This document shows, piece by piece, positions 7,368 to 32,863 of a DNA stretch of 64,000 nucleotides. Positions within the stretch are counted from its first letter, which is position 1. Each line of letters begins with the position of its first letter. Below the pieces are notes generated by a model. The model had not been told where the DNA came from. It was given only the letters and a program-made list of their open reading frames with translations, and made no database searches. The translations under genes were made by a program, and so were the position numbers. Location: NCBI RefSeq assembly GCF_051903065.1, contig NZ_CP178438.1; one strand, given 5' to 3'. This stretch comes from Escherichia coli. GTDB lineage: Bacteria; Pseudomonadota; Gammaproteobacteria; Enterobacterales; Enterobacteriaceae.

Positions 7368-7943
7368 CTACGGCAGTGCTGGCCATTCAATATCCTGTGC
7401 AGTTGACGTATCAACACGGTTCAGCAATACCCGATACTTTTTCCATGCTTCCAGCAACGAGATTTCTTCCTCCGTTGCAATTTCCAGATCTGCAGCATCC
7501 TGAAGCGGCGCAATATGCTCACTGGCTACCTGCATCAGGTTGTTTTTTGTTTCTTCCGCCTCCCGGATCCGGAACAGTTTTTCTGCTTCCGTATCCTTCA
7601 CCCAGGCTGTGCCGTTCCACTTCTGAAACTCCCCTTCCGGCGATAACCAGGTAACATTTTCCGGTAACGGACCGAGTTCAGAAATAAATAACGCGTCGCC
7701 GGAAGCCACGTCATAGACGGTTTTTCCCCGATGATCTTCAACGAGATGCCACGATGCCTCATCACTGTTGAAAACAGCCACGAAGCCTGCCGGAATATCT
7801 GGCGGTGCAATATCGGTACTGTTTGCTGGCAGACCTGTATGAGGCGGAATATATGCGTCACCTTCACCAATAAATTCATTAGTTCCGGCCAGCAGATTAT
7901 AAATTTTTATGGTCTGTGGTTGTTCACTCATTCTGAATGCCAT
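7368..7943 (-). CDS. tfaQ: tail fibre assembly protein
   Basis: 191-aa ORF immediately downstream of tail fibre gene; Tfa-family organisation. Confidence 0.85.
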
Positions 7944-9159: not shown

Positions 9160-10216
9160 GGCTTTGTTGAATAAATCGAACTTTTGCTGAGTTGAAGGAT
9201 CAGATCACGTATCTTCCCGACAACGCAGACCGTTCCGTGGCAAAGCAAAAGTTCAAAATCACCAACTGGCCCACCTACAATAAAGCCCTCATCAACCGTG
9301 GCTCCATAACTTTCTGGCTGGATGATGAAGCTATTCAGGCCTGGTATGAGTCAGCAACACCTTCTTCACGAGGCAGACCTCAGCGCTATTCTGACCTTGC
9401 CATCACGACTGTGCTGGTCATTAAACGCGTATTCAGGCTGACCCTGCGCGCTGCGCAGGGCTTTATTGATTCCATTTTTTCTCTGATGAACGTTCCGCTA
9501 CGCTGCCCGGATTACAGCTGTGTCAGCAGGCGGGCAAAGTCGGTTAATGTCAGTTTCAAAACGCCCACCCGGGGTGAAATCGCACACCTGGTAATTGATT
9601 CCACCGGGCTGAAGGTCTTCGGTGAAGGCGAGTGGAAAGTCAAAAAGCATGGCCAGGAACGCCGCCGTATCTGGCGTAAGCTGCATCTCGCCGTTGACAG
9701 TAAAACACATGAAATCATCTGCGCTGACCTGTCGCTGAACAACGTTACGGACTCAGAGGCCTTCCCCGGGTTAATCCGGCAAACCCACCGGAAAATCAGG
9801 TCAGCCGCCGCCGATGGCGCTTACGATACCCGGCTATGTCACGATGAACTGCGGCGTAAGAAAATCAGCGCGCTTATCCCTCCCCGAAAAGGTGCGGGTT
9901 ACTGGCCCGGTGAATATGCAGACCGTAACCGTGCAGTGGCTAATCAGCGAATGACCGGGAGTAATGCGCGGTGGAAATGGACAACAGATTACAACCGTCG
10001 CTCGATAGCGGAAACGGCGATGTACCGGGTAAAACAGCTGTTCGGGGGTTCACTGACACTGCGTGACTACGATGGTCAGGTTGCAGAGGCTATGGCCCTG
10101 GTACGAGCGCTGAACAAAATGACGAAAGCAGGTATGCCTGAAAGCGTGCGTATTGCCTGAAAACACAACCCGCTACGGGGGAGACTTACCCGAAATCTGA
10201 TTTATTCAACAAAGCC
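9160..10216 (+). mobile_element. IS903-like insertion sequence (IS5 family), 1057 bp
   Basis: 18-bp terminal inverted repeats GGCTTTGTTGAATAAATC at 9160-9177 and 10199-10216 (reverse complement); single transposase ORF; no 9-bp target duplication. Confidence 0.85.
9192..10160 (+). CDS. IS903-type DDE transposase
   Basis: 322-aa [55 protein letters not shown]...; recognised as IS903/IS102-type by memory. Confidence 0.85.
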
Positions 10217-11389: not shown

Positions 11390-11465
11390 AAACCGCGAAA
11401 AACTGGAAGGGTGATGAACGGTCATCAAAAGCATGGAAAACGACATTCCAGACGCAGCAAGGGTT

Positions 11466-14446
<2,981 letters not shown>

Positions 14447-14472
<26 letters not shown>

Positions 14473-14992
14473 TCAGCAACCCCGGTATCAGTTCATCCAG
14501 CGCGGCTGCTTTGTTCATGGCTTTGATGATATCCCGTTTCAGGAAATCAACATGTCGGTTTTCCAGTTCCGGAAAACGCCGCTGCACCGACAGGGGGATC
14601 CCGTCGAGAATACTGGCAATTTCACCTGCGATCCGCGACAGCACGAAAGTACAGAATGCGGTTTCCACCACTTCAGCGGAGTCTCTGGCATTTTTCAGCT
14701 CCTGTGCGTCGGCCTGCGCACGCGTAAGTCGATGGCGTTCGTACTCAATAGTCCCTGGCTGGAGATCTGTCTCGCTGGCCTGCCGCAGTTCTTCAACTTC
14801 CCGGCGCAGCTTTTCGTTCTCAATTTCAGCATCCCTTTCGGCATACCATCTTATAACGGCGGCAGAGTCATAAAGCACCTCATTACCCTTGCCACCGCCT
14901 CGCAGAACGGGCATTCCCTGTTCCTGCCAGTTCTGAATGGTACGGATACTCGCACCGAAAATGTCAGCCAGCTGCTTTTTGTTGACTTCCAT
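14447..14992 (-). CDS. lambda-like terminase small subunit Nu1 (NohA-type)
   Basis: 181-aa ORF MEVNKKQLADIFGASIRTIQNWQEQGMPVLRGGGKGNEVLYDSAAV... Confidence 0.9.
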
Positions 14993-16809: not shown

Positions 16810-17080
16810 GATGTTACCGTAGTATGTGAGTATCCATCGAATAGACACCAAGCAAAAAAGCTCCCGAAGGAGCCTTCATTTTCACTTTTTTAAATCCAAC
16901 GACAGACGGCTGGCATTTAAGTATTGTGAAATATTATCAAATGTAATCATCATTGATTTACAAAAGATACATTTTGCCCCGAAAGGATTCATGTCAGAAA
17001 CATCAAAAGATGATGTTCTATACTGGGAACCATGACAACACGGGCATCTAAAGTGAATATGGTTTGTAATATTGTCTACC

Positions 17081-17293
17081 TCAAAGCGCCACTACATGAA
17101 CAGCGGCAGGACCTTTAGGTCCGTTCTCAATACCAAATTCAACTTCCTGATTCTCAGTTAATGTTTTGAAATCGTTGCTCTGAATTGCTGAGAAATGGAC
17201 AAACACATCTTTGCTGCCATCTTTCGGCGTGATGAAACCAAAACCTTTTTCAGGGTTAAACCATTTCACTAAACCAGTCATTTTGTTAGACAT
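17081..17293 (-). CDS. cspI: cold shock protein CspI (CspA family)
   Basis: 70-aa [26 protein letters not shown]... cold-shock domain RNP motifs. Confidence 0.9.
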
Positions 17294-17655
17294 AATTATT
17301 ACCTTTTGAAGAAATTAGCCCTTGGGCAGAATGGTCCGAAAAAAAATATCAGAGAGAAAAACCAACAAGGAAATCTCAAGAGGTACAAATAATAAAATTA
17401 TAACAATGACTGCTTCAGATAAATTTGTAACAAACCAGAACACCATTAACGCATGATTAACCACCCATAGCAAGGATTACTTTTGTAAAGAAAAACACAG
17501 CAATGAAAGAATAGCTTTATTTATTAATAAAACGTGTCATTCTGATTAAGACCTTTTATCTTACCCTTAAGATTTCAGGAATTTTGGCTCATGGAAGAGT
17601 CCTTTTTATTTAAATTTTACATTCCGCGATGTAAATGTTCCGATTTAATATTACC

Positions 17656-19600: not shown

Positions 19601-19963
19601 TTGATTTTATTAGTAACAAGTATTTTTTATATTTTAATAATATATTTAAAGCAGATAATAAAAAACCCGCCTGAGCGGGTTTGAGATTGTGGTGCTTTTT
19701 GTGGGAGTCATCCACTTACGCACTTTGTTTTGCGATGCCAGCAGTTAGCTTCTGCTGTGAAACTATTCATGCAGCAAACCTGCACTTCACCACAATGGTT
19801 AGCATACTTTTCCTGATTAAGATTTTGCCAAATATGCTGGCCATTGTTTCATGTATTGGACCTCCTTACTTTTTATTAAAGAGATCCAATATTCACTACT
19901 CTGTCCGTATCTCTACTCAGGCATCAGCCTTCTTCGTTATCGTATACAGACGAGCGATGAATT

Positions 19964-20179
19964 TTAATCAGTAATGATGACATTTACTGCTGCAGGACCT
20001 TTAGCACCACTCTCTATAGAGAAGGTAACCTTTTGACCTTCAAATAAGGTTCGATAATTATCATTCTGAATCGCAGAAAAATGCACAAACACATCTTTAC
20101 TACCATCAACAGGAGAAATAAAGCCGAAACCTTTATCAGCGTTAAACCATTTTACTAAACCAGTCATTTTATTTGACAT
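19964..20179 (-). CDS. cspB: cold shock protein CspB
   Basis: 71-aa [26 protein letters not shown]... Confidence 0.9.
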
Positions 20180-20489
20180 TCTACATTCCTTAACTTGAGC
20201 CTTTCGGCATAAATGGTTTGCATAACAGAAACGACTTCGTACTTAATTGGAGAGACTCAAAGAAGGAATAAGTGAATAACACCTGAAATGAGAACTGCTT
20301 TAGTAAACTACTTCGTATATCGTCTGTTCTTCAAACCGACGCAGTCATTAACTCATAGTTGAACATATGAAGCAATGTTTATTTTAGACATCCAGCCACC
20401 TTCAATCCTATCAAAAAAGTAGTTTTCTCCAGGAACGTGTGTATGGTGCACCAGGTTATCAGTATTAAGGAGTTTTTCTGTCCCCTAAA

Positions 20490-23525: not shown

Positions 23526-23640
23526 CAGAATCCTTCCGGATAATTAGCTCTCCCCTTTAAGGGACCATCCCTCTTATCCCTGCGCGCTACTTAAGTATTT
23601 TTGATTCTATTCCGGCACCGTCCAGAACTTCAAACGCGTT

Positions 23641-23673
23641 GAAAATAAAAACAAAAACCCGCCGAAGCGGGTT
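23641..23673 (-). terminator. Rho-independent terminator downstream of relBE-hokD
   Basis: Stem AACCCGCTTCGGCGGGTT followed by T-rich run on minus strand. Confidence 0.65.
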
Positions 23674-23741
23674 AAGTGCGGGTGCGTTGAGGATGCCTGC
23701 CACATCAGAGGTGGCGAGGGATTTCTCCCCCGCCGGGTCTC

Positions 23742-23897
23742 TTACTCCTCAGGTTCGTAAGCTGTGAAGACAGCGACCTCCGTCTGGCCGGTTCGGATTC
23801 GTACCTCGCAGAGGTCTTTCCTCGTTACCAGTGCCGTCACTATGACGGTTAAACAGATGACGATCAGGGCGATTAACATCGCCTTTTGCTGCTTCAT
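23742..23897 (-). CDS. hokD: Hok-family small membrane toxin (RelF)
   Basis: Hand translation: MKQQKAMLIALIVICLTVIVTALVTRKDLCEVRIRTGQTEVAVFTAYEPEE (51 aa); not in supplied ORF list. Confidence 0.85.
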   Translation of the reverse strand: MKQQKAMLIALIVICLTVIVTALVTRKDLCEVRIRTGQTEVAVFTAYEPEE

Positions 23898-23968
23898 AGC
23901 CTGCTTCTCCTGTCAACGCAAAGCAGAAGTGTCACCTTCGGTGCGAAACAGAGATGTCATGCTTTGGT

Positions 23969-24256
23969 TCAGAGAATGCGTTTGACCGCCTCGCTATATA
24001 CTTCCGAGCGTTCTCTTTTCCCAACAGAAATCACGAAAACGACAACTTTCTCGTCTATAACCTGGTATACAAGGCGATAGCCTGAAGACCGGAGCTTAAT
24101 CTTGTAACAATCAGGCATACCACGGAGCTTGTTTGCTTCAATCCGGGGTGACTCAAGTACTTCAACCAGCTTCTTTTTCAACTGTTCACGTACCGTCGAG
24201 CCCAGCTTTCGCCATTCCTTTAGTGCCCGCTCGTCAAAATCCAGAAAATACGCCAT
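23969..24256 (-). CDS. relE: RelE mRNA interferase toxin
   Basis: 95-aa ORF MAYFLDFDERALKEWRKLGSTVREQLKKKL... Confidence 0.9.
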   Translation of the reverse strand: MAYFLDFDERALKEWRKLGSTVREQLKKKLVEVLESPRIEANKLRGMPDCYKIKLRSSGYRLVYQVIDEKVVVFVISVGKRERSEVYSEAVKRIL

Positions 24257-24495
24257 CAGAGTTCATCCAGCGTCACACGTACTGGCTTAGGATTACGAAG
24301 CCGTTCTTTCACTATCTCCACAAGTTCAGCATCTTCATCACTCAGGAGTGTCTGTTTGAACGGCAAGCGTTCATTGTCAGCGATATACTCGAGCATGAGA
24401 CGAAGCGCTTCAGAAGGAGTTACACCCATTTTTTCAAGCGCGGCGTAAGAACGCGCTTTAAGTTCATCGTCAATACGCAGGTTAATGCTACCCAT
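24256..24495 (-). CDS. relB: RelB antitoxin
   Basis: 79-aa ORF MGSINLRIDDELKARSYA...; overlaps relE start. Confidence 0.9.
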   Translation of the reverse strand: MGSINLRIDDELKARSYAALEKMGVTPSEALRLMLEYIADNERLPFKQTLLSDEDAELVEIVKERLRNPKPVRVTLDEL

Positions 24496-24504
24496 GTCTT
24501 ACAC

Positions 24505-24535
24505 CTCTTGTAATTACAAATGTCATTACAAGTAT
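24505..24535. promoter_or_regulatory. relBE operator-like inverted repeats
   Basis: CTTGTAATTACAAATGTCATTACAAG: palindromic TTGTAAT/ATTACAA elements just upstream of relB. Confidence 0.55.
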
Positions 24536-24825
24536 CGCACTACAACATGCTTAGGGCAAGTCACGAAGGAAGTCAGAAAGTAGTCGTAAGAACGGTGATC
24601 ACTGTCCGCTTTGTGCCAGGAGCAGCCATTGCTAAGTCCATCCTGTATTGTGCAGGTCAGCTCGTTTTTAAAGAGTCCGGCCATCATCTTACTGGTACAG
24701 ACACCATATACTTTGTGACGGTCAGGCTACATATGCACAACTCAACTTATTCATCTATTTTTTGCTTTAGCATGTCAGTGTTGCTTTCTCGTCGGCGGGT
24801 GAGCGGTGACCTGACCTGTCGATAA
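24520..24825 (+). CDS. ydfV: prophage protein YdfV
   Basis: 101-aa ORF divergent from relB. Confidence 0.6.
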   Translation: MSLQVSHYNMLRASHEGSQKVVVRTVITVRFVPGAAIAKSILYCAGQLVFKESGHHLTGTDTIYFVTVRLHMHNSTYSSIFCFSMSVLLSRRRVSGDLTCR

Positions 24826-24977
24826 AGGAACGTAACACGTTTTATGCAACACCCGCATGCGGCAGAAAATTATTGCCGAACGTTTACCCCTGTCAACAAG
24901 CTTTACTTTCTGAGGCGCGCCAGCCCGCGAGGAAAACAATCTGAACATCAAACAATTAATGACACAAGAAATACGAT

Positions 24978-25004
24978 TAAAGATTTTTTTGTACATGCCG
25001 ATAG
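24978..25004 (+). promoter_or_regulatory. sigma-28 (FliA) type promoter upstream of flxA
   Basis: TAAAGATT-N11-GCCGATAG versus consensus TAAAGTTT-N11-GCCGATAA, 24 bp upstream of flxA ATG. Confidence 0.7.
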
Positions 25005-25027
25005 TGCTTTTTTAAAAGGAGAAATCT

Positions 25028-25360
25028 ATGTCTGTCACAATTCAGGGAAATACCTCAACCGTTATTTCAAACAACTCCGCCCCGGAAGGAACATCAGAAA
25101 TAGCCAAAATCACAAGACAAATTCAGGTGCTGACTGAAAAGCTTGGGAAAATCTCATCGGAAGAGGGGATGACGACACAGCAGAAAAAAGAAATGGCTGC
25201 ATTGGTACAGAAGCAAATTGAAAGCCTCTGGGCTCAACTGGAGCAGTTGTTAAGGCAGCAGGCAGAGAAAAAGAATGAAGACGCGACAGTTCAGCCTGAT
25301 AAAAAAGAAGAGAAAAAAGACGATACAAATACCGCTGGCACCATTGATATTTACGTCTAA
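25028..25360 (+). CDS. flxA: FliA-regulated protein FlxA
   Basis: 110-aa ORF MSVTIQGNTSTVISNNSAPEGTSEIAKITRQIQ... Confidence 0.85.
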   Translation: MSVTIQGNTSTVISNNSAPEGTSEIAKITRQIQVLTEKLGKISSEEGMTTQQKKEMAALVQKQIESLWAQLEQLLRQQAEKKNEDATVQPDKKEEKKDDTNTAGTIDIYV

Positions 25361-25374
25361 GTGACAGCCGTATT

Positions 25375-25397
25375 GTGGCCCTCATCGGGCCACTTTT
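25375..25397 (+). terminator. Rho-independent terminator after flxA
   Basis: GTGGCCC-TCATC-GGGCCAC followed by TTTT. Confidence 0.7.
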
Positions 25398-25796
25398 CGC
25401 CATCAGCCTTTTCTTTAAAGACATATTATCTTTGTATCATTTCTGATAGTTAACATTACAAGATATAAGTAATGGACGCACTCCCAATTAGTCTATTTAA
25501 ATCGCCACGAGTTTAACTGACAACCCATGATCAATTATGAATTGCAACTATTTCTGTAGTCACTTTTGTGGGGACAGTCCACAAAACTGCCAACTTCCGC
25601 TTCTTGCTCTTAGCGGACATTAGCATAGGCTATTTACCATAACGCCTCATTACGCACACCGCCCAGACTGACTCAGCGCGTTTCTGGCATATCCCCGGTA
25701 AAACAAGTAACAAACCACCCGAAAATGAACACCAGAAACGCGACTTAAGAATCTACCCTATGAATGGATATGCACTCAACCGAATCGATCTTGGTT

Positions 25797-27110
25797 TCAA
25801 TCTTTTTTATCGGGATCAGGCTTCTTTTTAGGTAACTTCGGGGGCTTAACTTGCTGATGACTTTGCGTTCGGCGCGTAAGCCAGGGATGGTCAGCTTTAG
25901 GTTTAACATAGTATTTTGAGCGTAAATCAATACGGGCATTATCCACTCGTTCATGGACACTCTTTTCATCATCCGGTGGTATAGGCTCCGGGCCATCAAC
26001 ATACTTTTCCCAGCCCAGCGCTTTCCCGTCATACAGAACGTTAATTTCACCGTCAAAGTTCTCGCATACAGTAACAACCGAATGCCTAAGTCGATATCCC
26101 CGGCCCTCACTGCGTACCTGAAACGCACTGCTTTTGTACTGGAAAGTGAGATTTTTAGACAGAACGCGCTTCGCCTGTAGGCTGAAGATATAACCCAGTT
26201 CCTCTTCAGAATGGTGCACATCAAGATGAGCATTATCAGTAGTACGAGGCGACGTAGCGAACCGGTTGTTATAGGCTTCAATAAAGGTCGGCAACCATGC
26301 ATTTGCTGTTTCAATATCACTGATATTCTGAAGCCGCATTTCTTTGACCAGCCTGTCCTGTAGTGTCTGATTGGCGCGCTCTACCCGCCCTTTTGCCTGC
26401 GGGCTGTTGGCATGGATTGGCTCGATGCCCAGTGTCTTTATCGCACGAGTGAACTGGGTCAGCTCACCTTCCCGCTCTGGGTTATTTACCCTGAATATAC
26501 TGTGTCTATCAGAGTAGAGAGCGAGCGGTACGCCATGATCATTAAGGTAACCCCGGAGGGTTTCCATGTAAGCCCGGGTTGTTTCAGCAGGCACAAAACG
26601 CAACGCCATCAACGCACTGGTGGCATCATCAATGAAAACGATCAGTGTACATCTGGGGCCTCGATTTTCAAACCAGTCATGAGATGAGCCATCAATCTGG
26701 ATCAGTTCACCGTAAGATGGTCGTCGCATGCGGCGTTGATATATACGGGCAATTTTACGACGGCGTTCACGCCATAACCCCTCTTCTATCATCCACTTTC
26801 TGAGAGTTTCAACGGATAAAGATAAACCGTGTATCTCGCGCAATTTTTCGCACGCAAACGTAGGTCCAAAATCAGCGTAACGGCCTTTGAGGAGTGAAAT
26901 TACTGTTGCTCTGAATTCAGTAGAAAAGGAATTATTAGGACGCTTTCCACGTCGGTGGGAAACCAGACCAGAAGGCCCTTCATTTCTATACCGTTGCACC
27001 AGACGTTTAACCTGCCGAATAGAAATGCCAATGCGTGCCGCAGCTTGTTCCTGAATAATCTGAAGTCGGTGGAGTTCCTTATGACTCATCGTAACAGTCT
27101 CTTTGATCAT
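25797..27110 (-). CDS. DDE transposase/integrase with N-terminal HTH and rve (retroviral-integrase-type) core; IS481/ISNCY-like, family not confirmed
   Basis: 437-aa ORF; motifs ...IQIDGSSHDWF..., ...VFIDDATS..., ...HANSPQAKGRVERANQTLQDRL...; element ends not identified. Confidence 0.7.
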   Translation of the reverse strand: MIKETVTMSHKELHRLQIIQEQAAARIGISIRQVKRLVQRYRNEGPSGLVSHRRGKRPNNSFSTEFRATVISLLKGRYADFGPTFACEKLREIHGLSLSVETLRKWMIEEGLWRERRRKIARIYQRRMRRPSYGELIQIDGSSHDWFENRGPRCTLIVFIDDATSALMALRFVPAETTRAYMETLRGYLNDHGVPLALYSDRHSIFRVNNPEREGELTQFTRAIKTLGIEPIHANSPQAKGRVERANQTLQDRLVKEMRLQNISDIETANAWLPTFIEAYNNRFATSPRTTDNAHLDVHHSEEELGYIFSLQAKRVLSKNLTFQYKSSAFQVRSEGRGYRLRHSVVTVCENFDGEINVLYDGKALGWEKYVDGPEPIPPDDEKSVHERVDNARIDLRSKYYVKPKADHPWLTRRTQSHQQVKPPKLPKKKPDPDKKD

Positions 27111-27444
27111 GAAAAATCCCCCAGAGAATTGTCTGGGGACATTTTAGAATGGTTCAAAGGGGACATTACAGCTTGGTGTTAACAATAGCCTGCTTCTCCG
27201 TGCCTTTCGGCACGTAAGAGGCTAACCTACATGTGTCTAGCATGAAATTGGCCTCAGATTAATGTTAAGCGTCTTGCAGGACGCGTAATGTTAACTGGGG
27301 CTTTTCTCTATCTGCCGTTGGTGTCCATGCCCGAGGCAGATAGCCTCAAGCACCCGCAGTCATTCTACTTAACTAAGATTTCCCCGCAAACCGTTTTTGT
27401 CCAGCACAGTAAATATCCAACTAAACCAATGGAGTTCGCTGTAT

Positions 27445-27624
27445 TTACCGCCAGTATTCAATGCACATGACCGCCATGAACACCCCTAAAAAAAGGGCAT
27501 TTATATATCCAAATATTAATATCAAAACATCAACTTTTTCCATATACCTTGCTGTGAAGATGATGGGCATACATGATGCGAACAACCAGAACGCAACAAA
27601 CAAAAACTGCAATGCGTTTTTCAT
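27445..27624 (-). CDS. small membrane protein, 59 aa, two predicted TM helices, unknown function
   Basis: AGGAGG 4 nt upstream of ATG; MKNALQFLFVAFWLFASCMPIIFTARYMEKVDVLILIFGYINALFLGVFMAVMCIEYWR. Confidence 0.5.
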   Translation of the reverse strand: MKNALQFLFVAFWLFASCMPIIFTARYMEKVDVLILIFGYINALFLGVFMAVMCIEYWR

Positions 27625-27878
27625 TATTCCTCCTACAATCAATGTGCAATTACATTTAAACACACCTCAATTTGGCCGGACATATAAATATCTAAACCAG
27701 AAAAAATCACTTACATAGCGTTACAAACTCTTTAGTCTAAAGGTTCATCGTAAAACATTCCCCATACTTATCAGTCCGTTCCGCGCCAGGTAGCTCATTG
27801 CCTTATCTGGCAACCTGTAATCAGGTTTCCGCTTTTTCAGTTGGCTGGTCGTTTAACCGACATAGTTAATCCATTAAT

Positions 27879-28166
27879 CTAGTTGCCGGATGTTGGTGGA
27901 TTTTCGCGTTTTAGTTGTTCATAAAAGTGCACAGCTTTAACCAGTTCTTCTGATGTAACTGGGACTGGTGAGGCAGTGAATAAGGCCTGAATTTGATAGT
28001 TCGGCCTGTCGTTACAATCCTCTTTTTTCGGTACATATTTCCAGTCACCAGACCACTACTTCCCCTGAAAGTCCGTAACGCCTTTTTTCACGTAGCGATA
28101 TCGCCATGCCACTGGTTTTGCTTGCCCCGCCGTTTCATGCCCTTCCTGATAATTAATCTCGCTCAT
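27879..28166 (-). pseudogene. small prophage ORF (95 codons) interrupted by one in-frame TAG at 28056-28058
   Basis: Hand translation MSEINYQEGHETAGQAKPVAWRYRYVKKGVTDFQGK-TAG-WSGDWKYVPKKEDCNDRPNYQIQALFTASPVPVTSEELVKAVHFYEQLKRENPPTSGN. Confidence 0.45.
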
Positions 28167-28354
28167 TCATCGCCCCACTCATCACAATATGCTTCGACCG
28201 GAGTTTTTCCCGCTTCATAGTCATCACGCTAGGATTCGACATCAGCAGCACTTCCACCGCGTAACTCACCATAGTCCATTAATAGTTCATCCCGCTCTTC
28301 AAAACTGATGTTATATTTAGCTGAACAAAAATCAGCCACTTTGTTCTTCCTCAT
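28163..28354 (-). pseudogene. small prophage ORF (63 codons) interrupted by one in-frame TAG at 28229-28231; stop overlaps next ORF start (ATGA)
   Basis: Hand translation MRKNKVADFCSAKYNISFEERDELLMDYGELRGGSAADVES-TAG-RDDYEAGKTPVEAYCDEWGDE. Confidence 0.45.
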
Positions 28355-28403
28355 CGTCTTTTATTTCGTGGTATGAGTAATTGCAGTAGTTAAAGAAAAT
28401 TTC

Positions 28404-28514
28404 TTATGCTCCGTCATGAATTTCCTCAGGTGTTGCGTCATCGTCCACTTCGAATACATCCTCAAAATCTCCACCAGCTATTCCCGTTTCAATAATAATT
28501 TTGAACTTTCGCAT
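28404..28514 (-). CDS. possible small acidic ORF (36 aa) at head of degenerate small-gene cluster
   Basis: MRKFKIIIETGIAGGDFEDVFEVDDDATPEEIHDGA; may itself be a fragment. Confidence 0.25.
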   Translation of the reverse strand: MRKFKIIIETGIAGGDFEDVFEVDDDATPEEIHDGA

Positions 28515-28776
28515 TTCACTACCGCCCTTTCGGGCGGCCTCCTGATGTTCTGAGGGTGCAGAAATCCATCCGGTTAAGGATTAAATTTTATTTACAGAAC
28601 TGAATTTAATTATTCAGATATACGTATCTGTAGCCTTACGAATCTACTCACTGGATGCCTCTTTCATAAAAATAATCCAGTGGGTTTTATCGTTTTTTCC
28701 CTGTTCGTTGACAGATAACAGGTTTTCTGTCTGTCAGTGCCAGAATCTGGCTTACCGGTATTTGCGTTTCATTCCA

Positions 28777-29133
28777 TTAAAAAATCAGAACGCCGTGCGG
28801 CCTCAACACCCGAAAGGCTTCTTTAAATCTCTGTCGCGAATCATCACGCCAGGCATCTTTATTCAGCCGTCCATATTTCTTTCCCATCCAGGCGTTATCA
28901 CCAACACTCTCAAGATGCGGAGGGTCTAATACAACCATCGAAAAAGATGCGTCTGCAAATGATAATGCACGAAAATCTGCGATAATGTCAGGGCTGATAA
29001 TCAAGCGTCTCCCATTGCGTAATGTGTATCCTTCTTTTCTGATATCGCTGAATATCGCCCGTTCGTCAGACTTATCGAACCAGAACATGCGGCTGCCACA
29101 GCACATATCAAGAATGGTTGCCGGTGCACTCAC
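28777..29133 (-). CDS. SAM-dependent methyltransferase-like protein, probably truncated (118 aa)
   Basis: Motif I-like LDMCCGSRM and motif IV-like VVLDPPH; ORF too short for a complete DNA methyltransferase. Confidence 0.5.
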   Translation of the reverse strand: MSAPATILDMCCGSRMFWFDKSDERAIFSDIRKEGYTLRNGRRLIISPDIIADFRALSFADASFSMVVLDPPHLESVGDNAWMGKKYGRLNKDAWRDDSRQRFKEAFRVLRPHGVLIF

Positions 29134-29552
29134 TGCGCCACGTCCTGAAAATTACCCTGATAGAAAGCCAGTATGCGCTGCATAACTTCGCTCTTCCGGC
29201 ACTCGCGACAGATTATGTTTAGGCGACTGTCGTAGCGACGTATTTCTCCGTCAGGTGATGACCAGATAAGGTCCGGATCAACCACAGCAGGTTTCTTCAC
29301 CTTTGCCCTCGAGAGTTTTTTGCGGGCGTTTTGCCAGTCCTTACGCGCCTGTTCAGAGGGGAATAACCCGTAGCCGGAGTTGTATACATCGCCACTGGCT
29401 ACCAGCTCTCTGGCAAGAACGCTCATCAGATATCTAGTCGCACCTGTTTTAGCTTCCAGTTGCCGTAACGTCTCACGGCCGCTCTGGCGCACGAGTTCCA
29501 CCACCTGCCATTTAATTTTTTCCCGCTCTTCTTGTGTAAAAACTTTTGCCAC
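29130..29552 (-). CDS. hypothetical protein (140 aa), translationally coupled to downstream methyltransferase-like gene
   Basis: Stop overlaps next start (ATGA at 29130-29133); HTH-like segment TLRQLEAKTGATRYLMSVLARELV. Confidence 0.5.
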   Translation of the reverse strand: MAKVFTQEEREKIKWQVVELVRQSGRETLRQLEAKTGATRYLMSVLARELVASGDVYNSGYGLFPSEQARKDWQNARKKLSRAKVKKPAVVDPDLIWSSPDGEIRRYDSRLNIICRECRKSEVMQRILAFYQGNFQDVAQ

Positions 29553-29592
29553 AAGTCCCCCTTAAAATTACCTCATGACCTGAAATCAACAC

Positions 29593-30558
29593 TTATCCTC
29601 TGAAACCAGGCGGAATTTCTGTATCCGGTTCAGAAATATGATTAACACAACGCTGTACAGGTGAACGTCCCAGGCGGATGACCAGTTCGTCCCATTTTTC
29701 GAGGAGCTTTGACGGGCTCATGATGTTTTTTACCCAGAATGGATCTCGCTGAACCCGACCAAACATTTCGCAAATTTGTCTGTGGCTTCTGCCATCCAGC
29801 ATCCGCATTGTGCGCACGTCATTGGCCCAGGCAGTCCAGTTAGGCTCTTTTGGTCGCATGATCTCGCCATCATCACTGGCTGCCTGTTCGTAGAGACCCA
29901 CGATCCGCCCCCAGATCCACTGCGCACACGCCAAATCCTCCCTGCTACCCCACTGGCGTTTTTTCGCACTAAACACAACCGCGTCGGAGTTCCGGGTTAA
30001 AAAATCCTGTTCAGTCGTCTGCGGGTCCGGTTGCGAAGCTTCCGGACGAAAAGTGTTTTTATTCTCTGTAGTAATCTCTGTTGTATTCTCTGTAAGATCA
30101 TCAGGCCATTTTGACCCGATGACATTGGGTCGTTTTGAACCAATGGAGCGTTTCATTTTGACCTCTTCCATCGTGTCATTTTGACCTGATGGAGCGGCGC
30201 ATTTTGAACCGATGGATTCGCTCAATTTGCCACCATCTAAAAGCTCGCTCCCATAGTTGATCGTGTAGAAATTGGTCATATCGCGCTTTGATTTATTGAG
30301 CTTTTCACAACGCAAAAGCCCCAGCGTTTTCAGACTTGCAAACGCGCGCTTTAACGTTGACTCTGACCAGAATGGGAACTGTTCCAGCCATTGTTCCGTT
30401 GTGTTATAAATCCAGCGAACACCATCACATTCCATGCCGGAGTTGGTATCTCTCAACCAGTAGTGCAGTTGTTGCAAAACAATGGCTTCGTTTAAGCCAA
30501 TTTTCATTGCCAGCTGCGTGTTTATAACCAGTGGGCGTTCAGCAAAAAGAAGGCTCAT
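29593..30558 (-). CDS. lambda O-like replication initiation protein
   Basis: ORF 29593-30612 (start probably Met at 30558); C-terminal region ...WANDVRTMRMLDGRSHRQICEMFG... resembles lambda gpO; iterons inside gene. Confidence 0.75.
   Translation of the reverse strand: MSLLFAERPLVINTQLAMKIGLNEAIVLQQLHYWLRDTNSGMECDGVRWIYNTTEQWLEQFPFWSESTLKRAFASLKTLGLLRCEKLNKSKRDMTNFYTINYGSELLDGGKLSESIGSKCAAPSGQNDTMEEVKMKRSIGSKRPNVIGSKWPDDLTENTTEITTENKNTFRPEASQPDPQTTEQDFLTRNSDAVVFSAKKRQWGSREDLACAQWIWGRIVGLYEQAASDDGEIMRPKEPNWTAWANDVRTMRMLDGRSHRQICEMFGRVQRDPFWVKNIMSPSKLLEKWDELVIRLGRSPVQRCVNHISEPDTEIPPGFRG
30105..30240. repeat. iteron array (5-6 copies, ~23-24 bp period) inside O-like gene: candidate replication origin
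   Basis: Repeated CATTTTGACC/CGTTTTGAACC...GATGGA units at ~30107, 30131, 30154, 30177, 30201, 30224; flanked by AT-rich TCTCTGT repeats. Confidence 0.7.
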
Positions 30559-31060
30559 AATTCCATCCAGCTTTTTGTTGGTATTGCTGTCGATACGCAA
30601 GTTTGAAAGCAATTGCTTTTTCTATAAGTTCGTCAGTTTCACGATCCACTACGGCAGGATCAGCAAAAAGCAGTCCGGACTCCACCACATCGCCATATTC
30701 TTTGTTTAACCCGGCGATCATGCACGTGATGCTTTTTCCGTCAGTAATTTCACGATACAACCTGAAATCATTAATCCGGATAGCCTCCATAATTGCAGGC
30801 ACTAGCGCCGTGAACTTTTCACGCTTATCCCTGGTGTCGATAGCCTTCCAGCGTTCAAATATCTTCACTCGATTAACGCCAAGCGCTCGCTGATCAATCG
30901 CGCCACCTTCATATGTGACACGCTGAACATCGATGTTCGGGCGCTCTTTCAAAGCCCAGAATGCTTCAGTGATTAATATCGTCGCCTGCTCCTGTGTCAT
31001 TCCTGGTCGACATATCCAGGCATCCAGAGCCTCACGAGCCTGTTCAGGAGTGATTTTCAT
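30539..31060 (-). CDS. YdaT-like protein (cII-position regulator analog)
   Basis: 173-aa ORF downstream of cro-like dicC; ...DKREKFTALVPAIMEAI... resembles Rac YdaT by memory. Confidence 0.55.
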   Translation of the reverse strand: MKITPEQAREALDAWICRPGMTQEQATILITEAFWALKERPNIDVQRVTYEGGAIDQRALGVNRVKIFERWKAIDTRDKREKFTALVPAIMEAIRINDFRLYREITDGKSITCMIAGLNKEYGDVVESGLLFADPAVVDRETDELIEKAIAFKLAYRQQYQQKAGWNYEPSFC

Positions 31061-32805: not shown

Positions 32806-32863
32806 TTTCTGGTGACGTTTGGCGGTATCAGTTTTACTCCGTGACTGCTCTGCCGCCCTTTTT
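32806..32863 (+). ncRNA. dicF: DicF small regulatory RNA (ftsZ-targeting)
   Basis: TTTCTGGTGACGTTTGGCGGTATCAGTTTTACTCCGTGACTGCTCTGCCGCCCTTTTT matches remembered DicF with intrinsic terminator; ends approximate. Confidence 0.8.

Follow-up and report, generated by a model that had tools for sequence, protein, structure and literature searches.

The relBE-hokD operon of a Qin-type Escherichia coli prophage: very probable origin by insertion of a relBE-carrying transposon into a phage hok/sok locus

The relBE-hokD (relBEF) operon of Escherichia coli K-12 lies in the cryptic prophage Qin and consists of a type II toxin-antitoxin pair, relB and relE, and a gene of the Hok family of type I toxins, hokD (relF). 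In K-12, one full-length transcript was seen with relB, relE and relF probes, and it depended on the relB promoter (PMC3598666). RelB2-RelE complexes bind the operator relO cooperatively and repress the promoter, and excess RelE breaks the complex off relO (conditional cooperativity; PMC2812701). When Lon degrades RelB, RelE cuts mRNA at the ribosomal A site (PMC2812701; PMC3507626). The homology of relF/hokD to hok has also long been known, and hokD has been described as inactivated by genomic rearrangement (PMC12214031). Here, we analyzed a stretch of 64,000 nucleotides (nt) of E. coli DNA (contig NZ_CP178438.1 of assembly GCF_051903065.1; hereafter, the window), in which the same operon lies at positions 23641-24535. 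We find that this known locus very probably arose when a transposon of the IS1202/ISNCY family, with relBE as its cargo, inserted into a complete phage hok/sok locus.

Pedersen and Gerdes reportedly noted in 1999 that IS150 or IS186 lies near hokA, hokC and hokE. Further, Lima-Mendez et al. are said to have described in 2020 transposons of the Tn3 family that carry type II toxin-antitoxin pairs; we know of no such Tn3-family carrier that targets another toxin-antitoxin locus. Members of the IS1202 family possess DDE transposases of 400-500 amino acids (aa), imperfect terminal inverted repeats of 24-26 bp and TGT/ACA ends (PMC10132070 for repeats and ends), and the family includes site-specific members and occasional passenger genes. 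In its ISTde1 subgroup, the target duplications are 15-17 bp long. Two surveys of the IS1202 family report toxin-antitoxin genes as neighbouring dif modules, not as cargo.

Positions 23600-24600 of the window were 100% identical to K-12 MG1655 and to many other E. coli, in which relB, relE, hokD and ydfV are annotated. The encoded proteins, relO, the terminator and the neighbours rem, ydfU, ydfV and flxA are the same as in K-12, and this kilobase was present in about 1,161 of 5,426 complete E. coli genomes. The original prediction, a model's reading of the letters, had described relB, relE and hokD with a terminator and regarded the locus as known biology. Every feature that it described was present within 23641-24535, all on the minus strand, which it had left unstated. 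The alignment to K-12 that it proposed as a check revealed no frameshift in relE or hokD, and the locus is K-12 relBE-hokD base for base. Its reading as the known locus thus stands, with two refinements: hokD, as described below, is not a complete type I system, and the three-gene operon appears to be a chimera, formed through a relBE-carrying transposon at the ribosome-binding site of a hok gene.

The two halves of that hok locus are separated in the window. As it stands, hokD is a decapitated hok gene, the promoter, Sok antisense gene and mok start of which lie 3.3 kb away, at 27481..27185. Rfam matched the sok family RF01794 to positions 27184..27355 on the same strand as hokD (104 bits against a gathering score of 59), and the ATG of mok is found at 27243. 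The insertion cuts the mok open reading frame (ORF) to 25 codons, and the overlap with hokD is limited to the 3' part of the mok frame. The orphaned leader ends abruptly at GGAGAAGCAGGCTAT, after which the transposase gene follows. The leader and its Sok-like gene are unannotated in the RefSeq genomes that share them. Between 22500 and 26000, which includes hokD, Rfam detected no sok match at E<1. Weak matches to isrK and rsmX near hokD, probably driven by the terminator hairpin, were rejected as chance; the isrK match, which at 25 bits is below its gathering score of 50, covers 23652-23733 of the minus strand, in the hokD 3' untranslated region and terminator.

When an intact E. coli prophage locus (L003) was compared with the window, the sequence matching 28617..27185 (94.6% identity) was followed directly by that matching 23911..23655 (98.4%). 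Both window segments matched L003 positions 1760-1775, which are 16 bases around the hok ribosome-binding site. Phage 933W, with annotated sokW, mokW and hokW, is likewise uninterrupted and bridges both halves end to end. Thus, hokD with its 3' untranslated region and terminator corresponds to the downstream half of hokW/sokW of 933W, and 27185..27481 to the upstream half; the difference is that the halves lie 3.3 kb apart in the window. Among the lambdoid phage records listed, the two flanks were contiguous over 88-92 bp, and a single copy of the duplication predicts 92 bp. In the alignments to L003 and 933W, no hok homology was found upstream of the hokD ribosome-binding site, where the transposon end and relE lie instead. 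We also considered that the leader and hokD might come from two paralogous hok loci and rejected this, since L003 and 933W bridge both halves with one copy of the 15-bp sequence (15-mer).

The segment between the two halves has the structure of a transposon (Table 1). Its ends read 5'-TGTTAACACCAAGCTGTAATGTCCCC and GGTGACACTTCTGCTTTGCGTTGACA-3', with TGT...ACA termini, and the inverted repeats at the left (IRL) and at the right (IRR) match at 19 of 26 positions. Directly outside both ends lies the 15-bp sequence GGAGAAGCAGGCTAT as a perfect direct repeat, which occurs exactly twice in the window compared with 0.01 occurrences expected. The relE stop codon is 57 bp inside the right end. RefSeq annotates the same transposase on plasmids as "IS1202-like element ISEsa1 family transposase" and, on DNA identical to the window, splits its intact ORF into "ydfW" and a partial pseudogene. 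A single large DDE transposase, imperfect terminal inverted repeats with TGT...ACA, a 15-bp duplication, and both filled and empty sites were found, as in the IS1202 (ISNCY) family; the likeness to the ISTde1 subgroup is one of duplication length. The family also includes ISAjo2/ISAba32, which target dif/pdif, and tISKpn21 (a "transporter IS"). The element shares with these the transposase, the terminal repeats, the duplication length of the 15-17-bp subgroup, oriented site-specific insertion as in some members and passenger genes as occasionally seen in the family. In contrast, its target is the leader and Shine-Dalgarno sequence of hok, not an Xer site, and its cargo is a toxin-antitoxin operon with flxA and ydfV, which doubles the usual length.

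We propose that this 3,274-bp transposon (23911..27184) entered, 2 bp downstream of the leader hairpin GCCGNAAGGC, a phage hok/sok locus that had been complete, and that the insertion duplicated 15 bp holding the hok Shine-Dalgarno sequence. The element would have brought the transposase gene, flxA, ydfV and relBE, the last beside its right end. The controls would thereby have been swapped: the transposase gene would now stand downstream of the hok promoter, the truncated mok (mok') and Sok, and hok would be read from the relB promoter. The relBE message would then be the sole transcript to include hokD, as its 3' end, and would stop at the original hok terminator. Read-through from the hok promoter into the transposase gene seems probable from this arrangement, and we speculate that the orientation of insertion couples transposase expression to the control of the hok leader.

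The co-transcription of the three genes in K-12, and the occurrence of the arrangement in 1,161 of 5,426 complete E. coli genomes, could be taken to mean that relB-relE-hokD is an ancestral, purpose-built operon from which stand-alone hok/sok was derived, and that no mobile element was involved. However, the boundary between relE and hokD is a transposon end plus a 15-bp repeat, the other copy of which ends an orphan hok leader 3.3 kb off, and intact loci hold one copy of this 15-mer. Further, the relBE-bearing unit also precedes unrelated hok genes, with locus-specific duplications, and the pairs of filled and empty sites described below already contradict an ancestral operon. We therefore give this explanation next to no credence and favor transposition into hok/sok.

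Plasmids of Salmonella, Enterobacter, Citrobacter and E. coli, as well as one sequenced phage, carried the 3.3-kb unit at about 99% identity. In a Salmonella IncI1 plasmid, it adjoins trbA and precedes a pndA-type Hok/Gef gene, with TGGAGGGGCTATGAT on both sides. In an Enterobacter IncF plasmid, it precedes a different hok, with GGAGAAGAAGGCCAT on both sides. When the flanks of these plasmid copies were rejoined with one copy of the repeat, they matched uninterrupted plasmid loci, ColIb-P9 among them, at 100% over 300 and 236 nt. There were thus three pairs of filled and empty sites (prophage, IncI1 and IncF) with three different 15-bp duplications. The phage record (PV340562.1, Escherichia phage PhiR42_1, from ECOR13) holds the complete transposon and both hok flanks at 11437-14817 with 99.9% identity, and the element thus travels in a deposited phage genome.

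ISEsa1 is listed in ISfinder at 1,609 bp, and members of the IS1202 family are mostly 1.3-2.0 kb. An ordinary ISEsa1-like insertion sequence (IS) of about 1.5-1.6 kb might therefore be all that entered the hok leader, with flxA-ydfV-relBE already beside hokD and the "IRR" at 23911..23936 a product of chance. However, a search for an internal right end giving an IS of about 1.6 kb revealed no inverted-repeat candidate downstream of the transposase gene: allowing up to 8 mismatches in 26 gave none, and the closest 22-mer agreed at 11 of 22 positions, which is the chance level. The two copies of the 15-bp duplication stand at the limits of the entire 3,274 bp, and in the IncI1 and IncF plasmids the whole unit with its cargo lies between matching duplications, with empty sites identical to the rejoined flanks. 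Further, relBE adjoins the right end on its inner side in almost every locus, across many genera and including variants without flxA and most of ydfV, and copies of about 1.6 kb with their own duplications and the same left end were absent among 114 loci. Insertion of a short IS alone is thus highly improbable compared with insertion of the whole relBE-carrying unit.

To survey the sites that the element occupies, the 20-nt right-end sequence was used as a query, blind to the flank, in three public collections, and this yielded 109 loci. The right end stood directly against a Hok coding sequence in 87 of them. These 87 junctions comprised 11 distinct 15-mers, including offsets of +/-1 nt within one hok type, and involved several distinct Hok proteins; those compared were only 37-41% identical to HokD, whereas the elements were about 99% alike. 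The hok genes were thus entered several times independently. Wherever the left flank was visible, the insertion lay 2 bp after the conserved leader hairpin, in the same orientation with one exception. Five more junction types were hok sites that had been secondarily modified: another IS after GGAG, a head-to-tail arrangement of IRR, 15 bp and IRL, and one inverted case. A group of apparently non-hok junctions, GGAG(A/T)TGTATGGGTC, was tried as a new target and rejected; it appears to reflect a secondary IS insertion into duplicated hok sequence. In the head-to-tail junctions (L006, positions 1887-1953; L065; L068), a right end, 15 bp of hok Shine-Dalgarno sequence and a left end follow one another, which suggests tandem or repeated insertion into a duplicated target.

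The remaining 14 right-end junctions were singletons, mostly from other genera, and were unrelated to hok, and targeting is thus a strong preference that is not absolute. Some copies are unusual. In Mangrovibacter phragmitis, a 1,938-bp derivative (L013, 8180-10117) has both terminal repeats and a flanking repeat matching at 13 of 15 positions, holds unrelated ORFs in place of the transposase and relBE, and could represent a related, non-autonomous element outside hok. One right end lies inside a related transposase gene (L018), and one full-length copy stands at a non-hok site with the 6-bp sequence CGCCTT as its sole possible repeat (L071).

Several points weigh against the account given above. 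ISEsa1 is described with 15/22 repeats, no duplication and no target (PMC10132070) and, at 1,609 bp, is unlike the 3.3-kb unit. The inverted repeats of the element agree at just the 19 of 26 positions noted above, and the subterminal repetition seen at the left end was not found at the right end. Compared with the 446-aa plasmid copies, the transposase of the window is missing 9 aa, in frame, from its N-terminal helix-turn-helix region, and it may be inactive, or this copy immobile, for that reason. The 14 non-hok junctions belong here as well, as do the chimeric flanks of one locus (L111; pnd-type leader to the left, hokD to the right), which indicate that recombination between copies also moves flanks. 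Finally, our statements on hokD translation, presented below, rest on RNA structure prediction.

The last-named junctions and chimeric flanks, together with the predominance of a single hokD type (63 of the 87 hok junctions), could also mean that the 3.3-kb transposon has no real preference for hok, and that a few old insertions were spread by plasmid and phage transfer and by recombination among hok loci. In contrast, wherever both ends can be seen, each of the 11 hok junction 15-mers, with their 1-nt offsets, agrees with its own locus on either side. The divergence of the flanking Hok proteins compared with the near identity of the elements, and the constant position past the GCCGNAAGGC hairpin in one orientation but for a single exception, likewise argue against passive spread, which we consider improbable. 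We conclude that the relBE-carrying transposon appears to have a strong, though not absolute, oriented preference for the junction of leader and Shine-Dalgarno sequence in hok-family genes, and that it would have picked the same site repeatedly in different hok genes on phages and plasmids, presumably through recognition of its target.

The left junction is invisible in K-12 because MG1655 lacks window positions 25982..30780 (4.8 kb). This deletion took ~375 codons from the start of the transposase gene, together with the left end, one of the two duplication copies and the orphan leader that contains Sok, and it left the C-terminal remnant ydfW. The window differs from K-12 in that it retains all of these parts, and the region with the full transposase gene and leader was found in about 494 complete E. 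coli genomes. The same 4.8 kb contains DUF7167-like, methyltransferase, DUF977 and replication-protein-O remnants, which were lost in K-12 between ydfW/ydfX and dicC.

The original prediction spoke of a type II module followed by a Hok-family type I toxin gene. The gene identities were borne out; however, hokD is not a complete type I system here, as it is without Sok, the mok start and its own promoter. A Hok/Gef toxin peptide was found, and Sok over the leader, a coupled mok and the predicted pairing of 5' (tac) and 3' (fbi) fold-back elements were missing. With the halves 3.3 kb apart, the hokD transcript lacks the Sok target, the mok start and the 5' fold-back partner. Taken as a unit, hokD thus lacks what defines a type I system, even though its toxin gene and terminator are preserved. 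The classical 5'-3' fold-back was predicted for the intact locus L003 only; at hokD, the 3' element alone is present (23652..23741). In the predicted fold of the chimeric RNA, the compact hok core is kept and the hokD AUG region is paired. Further, in the predicted relE-hokD RNA, the transposon end UGCGUUGA (23911-23925) pairs with UCAACGCA (23685-23700) in the 3' fold-back element of hok and so replaces the lost 5' partner, which may be due to chance. Since mok is gone, HokD is probably made poorly, if at all, from the chimeric mRNA under normal conditions, and this is consistent with the literature that calls hokD inactivated by rearrangement.

Some observations suggest a different role for hokD. 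It keeps an intact ORF, a Shine-Dalgarno sequence and a terminator. When other toxins induce cleavage, the most abundant fragment of relBEF mRNA is the relF part, which accumulates (PMC3598666). Over-expression of HokD is toxic (bioRxiv 10.1101/2025.08.07.668861), and hokD mRNA of K-12 undergoes adenosine-to-inosine editing at a Tyr-to-Cys site, at about 6% (PMC12214031). It might therefore be an exapted second toxin, translated from the relBE message when RelB is lost, which would make the locus a two-toxin module under RelB control. Against this stand the description of hokD as inactivated, the dependence of translation in hok systems on mok, the start of which is split off here, and the base-paired AUG region in the predicted fold. 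Further, the same insertion at many different hok genes suggests that hok serves the element as a place to land rather than as a partner kept by selection. We regard exaptation as rather unlikely and a poorly translated remnant of a split hok/sok locus as the better description. Codon 47 of hokD (23747-23761) is a Tyr codon TAC followed by G, in a UACG context; it appears to be the edited site reported in K-12, and its sequence is identical here.

The type II part of the operon was found complete. Pfam and NCBIfam assigned the three proteins to RelB, RelE/ParE and Hok/Gef well over the curated cut-offs, and RelE matched PDB chains 4FXE and 4V7J over its full length (E about 1e-57). The small genes are adjacent, with that of the antitoxin first, and the relB stop and relE start codons overlap as ATGA. 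RelB has the ribbon-helix-helix form of RelB/DinJ, RelE has the RelE/ParE fold, and an operator lies at the promoter, as in other type II RelBE modules. The proteins are identical to those for which the activities of Lon, RelB and RelE described above were established in K-12. A GC-rich, terminator-like hairpin, AACCCGCTTCGGCGGGTT, is followed by a T-run (23673..23656, minus strand). The neighbours are genes of prophage Qin (rem, ydfU, a Q-like antiterminator gene, cspB/cspF, flxA and dicF). Judged by its sequence, this is the relBE-hokD locus already known from K-12, in a Qin-type lambdoid prophage.

In the minus-strand reading, the region upstream of relB is GATACT-TGTAATGACAT-TTGTAATTACAA-gaggtgtaagac-ATG. 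The palindromes that the original prediction noted there are real and are the two half-sites of relO, which was mapped by scanning mutagenesis and hydroxyl-radical footprinting as four [A/T]TGT[A/C]A hexads at about -10 to +17 of the mapped transcription start (PMC2812701). The relO 24-mer TTGTAATGACATTTGTAATTACAA occurs once in the window, compared with 0 expected from shuffles. By this sequence identity, relO is taken to serve here as the autoregulatory operator of the antitoxin-toxin complex. A consensus promoter scan did not report the relBE promoter, which is below its threshold with 8 of 12 matches; the sole site that it found, 23633..23604, would serve rem. The assignment of TTGCCC-17 bp-GATACT as the probable relBE promoter is thus based on the published position of relO, with which it fits. 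The interval proposed originally, ending at 24535, covers the genes and operator, but the likely -35 hexamer TTGCCC (24559..24554) falls just outside it. Of ydfV, which starts inside relO on the opposite strand, no more than the first ~33 codons survive in the shorter variants of the element, and these correspond to the promoter region of relBE. This ORF may not represent a real gene.

Table 1. Positions of the operon, the transposon and the separated hok/sok parts in the window
Feature	Coordinates	Strand	Description
relB	24495..24256	-	79 aa; ribbon-helix-helix antitoxin and autorepressor; PF04221, 1e-32; NF008412, 133 bits (cut-off 96); WP_000534858.1, the K-12 accession
relE	24256..23969	-	95 aa; ribosome-dependent mRNA endonuclease toxin; PF05016 (ParE_toxin/RelE), 2e-13; TIGR02385; WP_000323025.1
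hokD (relF)	23897..23742	-	51 aa; Hok/Gef membrane toxin; PF01848 (HOK_GEF), 1e-23; WP_000813254.1, as in K-12
hok 3' untranslated region and intrinsic terminator	23652..23741	-	Contains fbi-like segment GCATCCTCAACGCACCCGC; homologous to the 3' end of intact hok loci
relO operator	24531..24508	-	Half-sites TTGTAATGACAT and TTGTAATTACAA; four [A/T]TGT[A/C]A hexads; identical to the operator from mutagenesis and footprinting (PMC2812701)
Probable relBE promoter	24559..24531	-	-35 TTGCCC (24559..24554), 17-bp spacer, -10 GATACT (24536..24531); putative
IS1202/ISNCY-family transposon	23911..27184	-	3,274 bp; order IRL, transposase gene (tnp), flxA, ydfV, relB, relE, IRR
IRL	27159..27184	-	TGTTAACACCAAGCTGTAATGTCCCC; inner part repeated subterminally 24 bp further in
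IRR	23911..23936	+	TGTCAACGCAAAGCAGAAGTGTCACC, read inward; between relE stop and hokD ribosome-binding site; identical IRR at plasmid junctions
Target-site duplication, copy 1	27185..27199	-	GGAGAAGCAGGCTAT
Target-site duplication, copy 2	23896..23910	-	GGAGAAGCAGGCTAT; hokD Shine-Dalgarno sequence and AT of ATG; single copy in intact loci
Transposase	25797..27110	-	437 aa; ISNCY/IS1202-like (ISEsa1 family); NF033594, 455 bits (cut-off 250)
flxA	25028..25360	+	110 aa; FlxA-like protein; PF14282, 2e-14; element cargo
ydfV ORF	24520..24825	+	101 aa; no family match; ATG inside relO, opposite strand; element cargo
Orphaned hok 5' half	27200..27481	-	mRNA leader, mok start and Sok target; Rfam RF01794; aligned to L003 and to sokW/mokW/hokW of phage 933W
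Sok-like antisense RNA gene	about 27235..27305	+	Putative; coordinates transferred by gap-free alignment to annotated sokW of 933W

Elsewhere in the window, Rfam matched the IS009 small RNA, two cspA-type thermoregulator leaders and DicF RNA at gathering level (7402-7600; 17054-17439; 19917-20340; 32807-32858), which is consistent with a Qin-like prophage. Further, positions 9160-10216 matched, at 99.9% identity, an IS903B-like element by which the phage replication O gene is interrupted in a sister genome (L002); this element occupies different sites in the two strains, which are otherwise identical.

The operon, relO and the relation of relF/hokD to hok are long-known, and a toxin-antitoxin-carrying transposon that targets hok is apparently unreported. 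In the literature, we found no account of relBE as cargo of the IS1202 family or of hok as its target, although an earlier description is still possible, and a 2026 preprint on the diversity and genomic context of Hok does not mention relBE-linked insertions. We put at about even the chance that the full proposal is both correct and unpublished, namely that relBE of K-12 is cargo of a previously undelimited 3.3-kb IS1202-family transposon, which inserts in fixed orientation at the start of hok genes with a 15-bp duplication. In the Tn3-family carriers, a type II module is an integral transposon passenger as well; the transposase superfamily and mechanism are different. Like other chromosomal hok loci of K-12 that were inactivated by an IS or by rearrangement, hokD is listed as inactivated by genomic rearrangement (PMC12214031), and the rearrangement is identified here. 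It differs from those loci in that the element lies inside the locus at the ribosome-binding site, has its own promoter and type II module, and recurs at the same site in other hok genes.

If this account is true, the "relBEF operon" and the "rearranged" hokD would both be by-products of a toxin-antitoxin-carrying transposon landing on another toxin-antitoxin locus. It would provide a concrete mechanism for the genomic rearrangement of hokD and account for the position of a type I toxin gene as the last gene of a type II operon. Further, a branch of the IS1202 family in which surveys had found neither duplication nor target would gain defined ends, a 15-bp duplication and a specific target. 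A much-studied chromosomal toxin-antitoxin module would then be mobile cargo, which bears on the debate over the purpose of chromosomal relBE.

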